Source: Carcharhinus amblyrhynchos (lineage: Eukaryota). From it: 64,000 nucleotides of DNA. The stretch covers positions 2,790,001 through 2,854,000 of the forward strand of contig OZ336895.1 in assembly GCA_965287045.1 (NCBI GenBank), in the 5' to 3' direction. Made by a program: the position numbers and the translations under genes. Positions 25,550-28,039 of this stretch are shown one piece after another (the stretch's first letter is position 1; each line of letters begins with the position of its first letter). The notes below the pieces were generated by a model. The model searched no databases. It was not told the DNA's origin and saw only the letters and a program-made list of their open reading frames with translations.

Positions 25550-26428
25550 AAACAACGCCTACCACTCATGACCACAGGAGAAGGTAAACACAGATCAGCA
25601 AAGTACAATCACCCCCTTCACAAGGCTGCTGGCTCTAACTGAGAAACCTTTCGAACCCACTAGTGGAGAGAGAGAGAGTTGGGTTTTTTTTAAAAGCATT
25701 GGTTAATTTGAGGGTTTCAGAGTGACGTCTGTAAAATGTTGCACACACAAAATGGAAACTGGATGGGATCTAAAAGGAAAAACAGGTTAAAGGTGGTGAG
25801 TGGTTAACCTGGAAATCCCGAAGTGACCTTTTGGGGGAAAAAAACTTCTGCACATCAAACAAAAAATGACAATTACGCTGCGTGTACAATTCCACCACCA
25901 TCTTTGATTCCACAATCCGGTTTGCAAGCGTCATTTCTTAGAGTGCCTTAGCTTTAAAGCGTGCTAAAGGAACGGTTAATTGATGTGAGGGGCCCCCTTC
26001 ACATTAAGTGCCGAGAAAGCGGGTTTAAAACAATAGCAAATGAGTCCGAACTCTACAGCAGATCCAAACAGTGCGTTATTACAAAGCAAGGTGGGTGCAT
26101 CCTTCCCCCCCCCCCCTTTTGGAAATTACAAAGGGATACATGAATTTACAAAAAAAAATGATTATAGACATCCAAGTGAAAGAAATCTTTCAGCCCAACC
26201 TGCAACTTAAATCAGAAATTGAGTGAGTGGGTGCCAATTTGATTTTGTTAAGGAAAAAACAGAGGGAGGATAGCTGTGGCTCGGGAAAGCTCACAATATC
26301 CGGCAGGAGGAAGAGACTCCAGAAGGATTTCAGAGCCGGCTGCTCAGTTTCACTTCCGAGAAGAAGACAAAACAAAAACAAGTGAAATTAACACGCTGAA
26401 ATCCAAAGGTGCGCAAGAAGTCACTTAC

Positions 26429-26452
26429 CGACTGCCTGGCTTGCGGATACAT
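26429..26452 (-). CDS. TLE: First coding exon (MYPQARQS, phase 0) of a Groucho/TLE-family transcriptional corepressor; paralog unresolved
   Basis: Minus strand reads ggggcgATG TAT CCG CAA GCC AGG CAG TCG|GTAAGT. This matches the short first exon of vertebrate TLEs (TLE2/3 MYPQGRHP, TLE1 MFPQSRHP, TLE5 MMFPQSRHS). Consensus donor and CpG-island context. Confidence 0.8.
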
Positions 26453-26666
26453 CGCCCCTTTTTTTTCTCCTCTTTCCCCTTCTCTCGGAAAACGGAGATT
26501 ATTTTTCCCCCAAAATTTCAATGAATCAAACCCTCCCTTGGAATCCAACAAAAAAAAATTCCTGCGGTAGCGACCAAGGGTAAAAACAAAAGCCAGATGA
26601 AGCTGTTTCCGCCGACACTTCCCGCACGGATTTGGTGGTGGGAAAAGAAAAAGCGAGAGAAAGGAA

Positions 26667-26774
26667 TTATTTTCTATCTTTCATGATGCGGTCGCGATAC
26701 ATTGTACACCCCTTCCGATAGATGACGTTGATGAGGGAGTCGCTGGTGTTTAGCACCGAAACATCTCGGTGCAT
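26667..26774 (-). CDS. Candidate 35-aa upstream ORF in the TLE 5' leader (MHRDVSVLNTSDSLINVIYRKGCTMYRDRIMKDRK*)
   Basis: ATG with G at -3, TAA stop, and ten consecutive C-ending codons, set between low-complexity homopolymer tracts. Confidence 0.5.
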   Translation of the reverse strand: MHRDVSVLNTSDSLINVIYRKGCTMYRDRIMKDRK

Positions 26775-27439
26775 TGCTCAGTGTGTATCACCCCCCAAAA
26801 AAAACAGGGAGGAAAAAAATCCTCTCTCTCCTTTGTATATTTTCCTCTTCCCTCTTTTTTTCCTTTTTTTGGGGGGGGTTCTTCTAGGAGGGGTTTTTCT
26901 TTTCCAAGGGGGGAAGGGGAGGGGGCTGATGTTGTTGTGGGAAGGGTAGTCTTTGCTGCCTTGCTGTCTGCCTCCCCGTTCCCCGTTTCCCTTCCTCGGG
27001 GATACAACGTTGTCGAGCGCTACAGCAGAGCGACACTGTAACAAACCGAGTGAGGGCGGTCCAATGACTGAGACAGACACCATGTGATGCGGAAGTGGGG
27101 TAGCTTACCCAGAGCCATTTTTAATAATCTTTACCCCCCAAAAATACACATTTTATTATATGCATATTTTTTAAAAAAGCCTCCCATCAAACCACTCTTC
27201 TATTTTAATTTCCTTCCACTCAGGACAAATAAATACATATTCCCCTCCCCCTCTTGTTAATTTACAATACAGATACATCGTTTCCCCCCCCCCCCTCCCC
27301 ATCCTGCTTATTTATAAAAGGGACGGGTTTGGACCTTAAAAATATATATAATTTTCCAGCTTCTTAAAAGCTCTGGAATAAATGTGCAGAATTCAACACT
27401 GCCTGAAGTATACCCTGGAGAGATAGATTACAAGGCTTG

Positions 27440-27740
27440 TTATCTCACGAGGGGTTTCAGATCACATCAATAAGGGTGACTGGACGGCTGTTTTTTTTTT
27501 CGCGTTGTGTGTCGTGTGCTGGTGATCCCACCTCCAACCTCCCGCTGAAAAAAAATGTGCGAGATTTAACTCCAGCTTGTCCAGGTTGTGCACTCCCCCC
27601 CCTCTCCCCTTTCCCCACCGCGATCCTGCCCCGCTCTGTCAGCCGCTACTTGCGTCCGGACGGAACGGTGGCAACAAAATGCGGATGGGGAGGAGAAGAA
27701 ATCTCAGTCTGTTAATTAACGGATCCAATGTTGGCCTCGT
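27440..27740. promoter_or_regulatory. Second CpG-rich patch upstream of the TLE promoter
   Basis: CpG-rich, TE-free segment next to the main promoter. Confidence 0.35.
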
Positions 27741-28039
27741 GCTGTCCCCATGATGTCTCTCCCAAGGGTGCAAACGACAGCAACATTCATTGATGAAGGA
27801 CAGAGTGAACAGGATAGGGGATTAGATATAAACTGAAAGATACAAAGGCAATTCAGCAAAGTGAATAAAGTAGGTCAGCAATGAGTGAGTAAATAAGTCA
27901 CCATCAGAGACAGTTACGGAGGAAAAGGACGTAGGTCATTCAGCCCCTCGAGCCTGTGCTAGCATTGAATTAGGATCATGTCTGACCGCCACTTCAACTC
28001 CAATTACCTTCGCTCCAATTCCCTTCACAAGCTTACCTA

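Follow-up and report, generated by a model that had tools for sequence, protein, structure and literature searches.

The 5' leader of AES/TLE5, a short member of the Groucho family, carries a 244-nt block in which no substitution was found among four sequenced organisms, and within this block lies a 35-codon uORF (upstream open reading frame) holding four upstream AUGs (uAUGs). We propose that this nucleotide-invariant block may well damp AES translation, and that it would do so independently of the sequence of the encoded peptide. AES/TLE5 counts as a dominant-negative modulator of the long TLE co-repressors (PMC2997355), and a change in AES protein dose would shift many Groucho-dependent outputs; the frozen, AUG-loaded leader would, if our reading is true, offer a compact example of how that dose is set at translation. 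That developmental regulators carry conserved uORFs is familiar in general, but a hyperconserved uORF-bearing AES/TLE5 leader in cartilaginous fish is apparently undescribed so far, no prior description having been found in the literature outside most subscription papers, the ESUCA chicken/zebrafish CPuORF list and the h5UTR Table S1.

The uORF had been assigned by the first-pass annotation to the leader of a TLE gene. The host is indeed of the Groucho family, but it is the short, dominant-negative-type AES/TLE5, with seven exons, the Q and GP domains and no WD40 repeats, rather than a long TLE co-repressor. A TLE_N search of the genome gave 19 matches belonging to six genes, three of them on C26 (the contig carrying the window, i.e. 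the 64,000-nt stretch analysed here, C26:2790001-2854000), two on C5 and one on C28. The exons of the AES/TLE5 Q domain (TLE_N, PF03920) lie at C26:2776164-2776238, 2763346-2763423 and 2695848-2695943, and the donor at 26428 of the window leads to exon 2 at C26:2776262 across a first intron of 40 kb, with the loose ends of the assembled contigs matching exon 2 in four out of four cases. Exon 7 (C26:2691571-2691344) terminates in a stop codon, and no convincing WD40 motif was present in the 200 kb of C26:2500001-2700000. In addition, cartilaginous-fish proteins named TLE5 or AES-like match the last exon at 97-100% identity, with cluster members of 197-213 aa, and five of the eight cluster members read have the identical N-terminus across the exon 1-2 junction. 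On these sequence grounds the host is identified as AES/TLE5 of a cartilaginous fish, adjoining a TLE2-like paralogue. This neighbour fits the tandem-duplication origin from a TLE2-like paralogue that has been proposed for AES (PMC2997355).

The gene spans 125 kb (C26:2691344-2816452), and by the same last-exon measure its protein is almost invariant among sharks, rays and chimaera. The cluster members occur in 197/198-aa pairs and exon 7 opens with CAGCAG past its acceptor, which suggests a tandem acceptor. Besides AES/TLE5 and the TLE2-like gene, C26 holds a third Groucho gene on the opposite strand, with a likely first exon unlike the rest.

Twenty of the 22 sequencing runs listed held the stretch, covering eight studies and nine organisms, and one run was assembled for each of four organisms (A-D). 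The runs were taken as RNA by guess, which the exon 1-2 junction supports. In each of the four organisms one contig spans the uORF, extends 230-309 nt past its AUG and joins exon 2, and the uORF therefore lies wholly inside the leader. By the first-pass annotation, a transcription start below 26774 would have refuted its reading; in these transcripts the contigs from all four organisms reach 27004-27083, so that the uORF keeps its place in the message. No joint within the leader was listed in the contigs of the four runs.

Near the 5' ends of the contigs, the AES CACATG and reversed CCAAT motifs stand 634 and 613 nt upstream of the AUG respectively. In the five paralogues, CCAAT boxes accompany an CCCCACGTG E-box; the distance from there down to the AUG is 584-859 nt in four of them and 1412 nt in one, and the pairing is possibly a promoter signature common since the Groucho duplications. 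Two longer coding readings of the leader were rejected. In the present genome the frame of the main ORF continues upstream from the AES AUG through 76 stop-free codons (26453-26683), back to a TGA overlapping uAUG4, but it is closed in B, C and D, where an extra A at 26501 introduces a stop; this eliminates both a conserved N-terminal extension and a +1 frameshift fusion to AES. Likewise, a 101-codon frame running from 27083 to a stop 3 nt before the first uAUG would have its own AUG at the very ends of the contigs or outside them, and it is broken by indels listed for B, C and D. The coordinates of the features are collected in Table 1.

Table 1. Features of the AES/TLE5 leader (positions in the window) and the Groucho-family genes of the genome
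Feature	Position	Strand	Basis or scope
AES/TLE5 exon 1, coding part, 8 codons, main AUG at 26452	26429..26452	-	spliced contigs
AES/TLE5 5' leader as far as spliced contigs extend, ends 27004, 27031, 27060 and 27083	26453..27083	-	contig ends, which give no start site or level
Substitution-free block; a single-nt deletion is listed at 26791, within a run of G	26553..26796	-	organisms A-D
Post-stop non-coding part of the block, as invariant as the uORF, ending in a splice-acceptor-like site	26553..26666	-	0/114 sites
35-codon AUG uORF, whose TAA also serves the in-frame AUGs at 26702 and 26684	26667..26774	-	0/108 sites substituted in A-D
Ten consecutive C-ending codons (9-18)	26721..26750	-	
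4-codon uORF, MFRC-stop, in the frame of the main ORF	26750..26764	-	
Predicted hairpin of 8 bp whose stem begins at the G of uAUG1 and whose loop contains uAUG2	26753..26772	-	fold prediction
Likely core promoter, putative function: E-box-like CACATG with a reversed CCAAT box, close to the 5' ends of the contigs	27061..27086	-	
Six Groucho-family genes	C26:1992876, 2415034, 2816452; C5:58144458, 59389528; C28:12964701	+, -, -; +, -; -	

Among organisms A-D, none of the 244 sites of the block varies, against 36 of the 335 sites elsewhere in the leader, and when 36 variable sites were placed at random, not one of 20,000 placements left a gap this long. As much of the flanking variation sits in slippery tracts, we also compared high-complexity sites only: six of 94 vary outside the block, against 0 of 108 in the uORF (p=0.009) and 0 of 114 past its stop (p=0.008). 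These data show that the constraint is real and that it ignores the stop codon of the uORF. The block is half coding-capable and half post-stop, which allows peptide-level constraint to be separated from RNA-level constraint. The conservation refers to four of the nine organisms, and organism A is identical to the window. The uORF is fully intact in A and in C, whose 16 gap letters all fall outside it, whereas organism B has no deletion in the uORF and four inserted letters without a placement. Organism D is less than 90% alike over the leader with indels partly unplaced, comprising 19 inserted and two deleted letters, and these two deleted letters fall in the bin 26751-26791, which takes in the opening 24 nt of the uORF. 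The unplaced letters of B and D come from 14 indel rows outside those listed.

The 35-aa peptide is the translation of the minus strand from 26774 to 26667, as first annotated, and its start context, GCA ATG C, with G at -3 and C at +4, is adequate. The uORF terminates 214 nt ahead of the main AUG at 26452, in agreement with the earlier estimate of about 215 nt, and it is not fused to the main ORF, having another frame and its own stop; none of the 12 cartilaginous-fish AES proteins read begins with the peptide. The sequence-complexity island that was said to coincide with the uORF does so on the 5' side, but past the stop a pyrimidine tract of about 28 nt gives way to a second high-complexity stretch.

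The first-pass annotation read the uORF as encoding a conserved peptide or a microprotein controlling Groucho/TLE dosage. Its position in a spliced Groucho-family leader, with no substitution in four of four organisms, bears out one half of that proposal; the peptide half fares less well. A functional 35-aa peptide would act either as a conserved-peptide uORF stalling ribosomes in cis or as a microprotein from a bicistronic AES mRNA, so that a sequence-dependent product, frozen in cartilaginous fish, would set the dose of dominant-negative AES from its own mRNA, and we regard this as unlikely. Its sequence is unchanged wherever it is fully accounted for (A and C), and its AUG lies 22 nt within the 5' edge of the block. 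However, the post-stop 114 nt are as frozen as the coding part, and the start is masked by a predicted stem. Over the 22.3 synonymous sites of the uORF we found zero synonymous and zero non-synonymous changes among A-D, which leaves Ka/Ks undefined and gives peptide-level selection no support. At higher background rates 2.4-4.3 synonymous changes would be expected (P0 0.09-0.014), and their absence counts against a constraint on the peptide; at the low background rate the expectation is 1.4 (P0=0.24), and the zero is then compatible with peptide-only constraint, which tells against our favoured reading. The near-invariance of the AES protein in cartilaginous fish points the same way, since slow evolution could mask synonymous change.

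The uORF had been described as codon-biased. Codons 9-18 do all end in C, as noted at the outset, and C occupies 15 of 36 third positions of the uORF against seven first and four second positions, which would favour a coding function. A same-base period-3 run of at least ten arose in seven of 20,000 dinucleotide shuffles of the uORF (P 3.5e-4). The run is notable but not decisive, because the window holds ten period-3 runs of at least this length, most of them in low-complexity sequence and three others with 7-8 distinct triplets. Furthermore, the run does not follow AES codon usage, under which it is as unlikely as under shuffling (P 1.7e-4), the AES coding sequence having C at 51 of 200 third positions.

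Database searches returned no homologue of the peptide among 1.84 billion representative proteins, no Pfam match for the peptide or for the frame read through its stop, and no exact record of the peptide; these blanks weigh against a functional peptide, although they are weak evidence because it is only a 35-mer. It also lacks an eh1 or WRPW-type motif. A DNA search of the genome for a paralogous copy matched the leader itself only, and an apparent likeness of the peptide to AES exon 2 was discarded as chance (P 0.26 for protein and 0.79 for DNA). The leaders of the five paralogues align with that of AES no better than shuffles and hold unrelated short uORFs, among them a 38-codon uORF in the C5 paralogue at 59.39 Mb, lying 191 nt ahead of the AUG, and a 58-codon uORF in the C26 paralogue at 2.41 Mb, lying 563 nt ahead. 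Rfam gave seven matches (E 0.8-3.6), all far under their gathering scores and none inside the uORF, and YCAY clusters numbered six against 5.2 expected. In the human Ribo-seq catalogue of 7,264 ORFs, TLE5 is represented only by a young 18-aa internal ORF, and the uORFs of TLE1/3/4 are unlike the peptide (PMC10032668). There is no aes/tle5 row in 13 of the 16 supplement files of PMC4568590, a set of conserved-sORF tables, nor in five files of PMC7484617 or in one file of PMC4890304.

The single non-self match of the peptide in the genome led to a further possibility, concerning origin and compatible with the other readings, namely that the block is an exapted, very old C-terminal coding fragment of a LINE-type retrotransposon, readable in one frame through the stop. 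We consider this very unlikely. The match is a copy of a family that carries the ALKBH8_N domain (PF09004), has 106,000 first-look candidates in the genome and is presumably Rex1/Babar. Against a profile built from 71 sequences of the family, the read-through frame of 70 aa reaches 9.7 bits, a value attained by none of 4,000 shuffles, and the post-stop part, which played no role in picking the family, gave P 0.005 at fixed register and 0.014-0.024 on broad profiles. Against this, the family was chosen post hoc, from a hit with E 4.25 in a search of 2.9 Gb, two unrelated loci do equally well (75 and 72 compared with 74), and windows without the family motif by eye reach 9.3-9.4 bits among 23,954. 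With the 49 divergent homologues the score falls to 8.4, on the genome-copy profile 1,329 of 5,000 shuffles outscore the post-stop part alone (0.27), and no match was found at the DNA level at E up to 100. The likeness to a LINE tail is thus a weak one, at the top of the chance range, and that a peptide carved from a LINE protein tail now serves as a functional regulator seems exceedingly improbable. The match itself lies between two TLE genes on C5, which is explained by copy number, at about 36 candidates per Mb.

We return to translational damping, which requires AUGs and a stop codon but makes no demand on the peptide sequence. The 608-nt leader (26453-27060) has four AUGs, and every one of them falls within the 108 nt of the uORF; all four have a purine at -3 (P=0.032), and three of them are in frame with one another and end at one stop (P=0.046), both values coming from 5,000 shuffles and from tests chosen after looking. 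The clustering of the AUGs and their purine contexts lead us to lean towards translation. A stem directly following the first AUG and looping out the AUG of the MFRC-stop uORF had been described; both the stem and the looped AUG (26764, in a loop of 4 nt) are borne out, with the correction that the stem begins on the G of uAUG1 itself. The predicted hairpin comprises seven Watson-Crick pairs and one G-U pair (-11.3 kcal/mol), seven pairs reach a probability of at least 0.97 in the whole-leader fold, and stems of at least 7 bp occurred in 2.9% of shuffled uORFs. Calculated over 35 nt from each start, the ensemble energy amounts to -12.8 kcal/mol at uAUG1 and lies between -2.2 and -5.9 kcal/mol at the remaining four AUGs. 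A hairpin about 14 nt downstream of an AUG aids initiation, whereas that of the uORF begins at +3. In vertebrates, uORFs tend to be translated more when the structure at their start is less stable (PMC4890304), and the modelled stem on uAUG1 is likely to weaken that start. The hairpin shows no variation among A-D from which covariation could be read. The purine tracts of 26790-26900 are also predicted to be able to pair with the pyrimidine tract of 26640-26666, enclosing the uORF, although the stability of the leader fold exceeds that of shuffles only slightly.

Translational damping would then operate as follows. Scanning ribosomes would be slowed at the stem, making uAUG1 a weak start, and those passing it would meet the MFRC-stop uORF and then two further AUGs in open sequence, so that only leaky scanning, or reinitiation over a distance of 214-297 nt, would bring ribosomes to the AES AUG. 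Ribosomes terminating at the uORF stop, 238 nt short of the first exon junction, would also make the mRNA liable to nonsense-mediated decay, and the 114 frozen post-stop bases would probably form an RNA-level element, such as a protein-binding site or an aid to reinitiation. uORFs mostly act independently of their encoded sequence and can trigger nonsense-mediated decay (PMC7530721, accessible part), and hyperconserved vertebrate 5'UTRs change translation efficiency (10.1101/2020.06.29.165878, accessible part). Two further observations tell against this reading. With one variable site, the 5' end of the leader (26981-27083) comes close to the block in constancy, so that the complex parts of this exon may be constrained in general. 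In addition, the block folds no better than shuffles (z 0.1), and no special folding was seen in the uORF (z -0.3), the post-stop part (z -0.2) or the whole leader (z -1.4).

Multi-uORF leaders of the ATF4/GCN4 type place a very short uORF ahead of additional AUGs, all of them upstream of the main start. The AES leader shares the very short uORF but has it nested in the longer one, and none of its uORFs overlaps the main ORF. The hyperconserved 5'UTRs (h5UTR/HCE), as defined in the accessible part of 10.1101/2020.06.29.165878, are similar in presenting a long, near-invariant leader block of a developmental regulator near the start codon, but they were called at a PhastCons LOD of at least 500 over at least 250 nt in 60 vertebrates, anchored on the mouse, whereas the AES block measures 244 nt in four organisms. 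The ESUCA CPuORFs (such as PTP4A1, MKKS and MIEF1) resemble the AES uORF as AUG uORFs of tens of codons, unfused to the main ORF, with a purine at -3 and kept in several species; they require a Ka/Ks of less than 0.5 across at least two further orders (PMC7530721, accessible part), whereas the AES uORF has no substitutions and its constraint runs past the stop.

Finally, the block might be a DNA-level promoter-proximal or splicing element, for instance through an acceptor at 26561 used with an upstream donor such as that at 27108, with the ORF incidental; this we hold to be improbable. An AUG ORF of at least 35 codons appeared in 23% of 5,000 shuffles of the block, so the length of the uORF is unremarkable, and the block lies in CpG-rich first-exon sequence. 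The acceptor-like site (first base past the AG at 26561) stands at the 99.1th percentile of the minus-strand AGs of the window, at the low end of the scores of 17 real TLE acceptors, and a GTAAG donor is present at 27108. One run also yielded a separate low-depth contig upstream (27402-27499 and beyond), which could reflect an upstream promoter, an antisense transcript or DNA. In contrast, neither a joint nor a loose end was seen at 26561 in the four runs, whose contigs drop rare forms, and the arrangement and contexts of the AUGs favour translation. A second CpG-rich patch (observed/expected 0.66-0.69) extends over 27250-27750 of the window.
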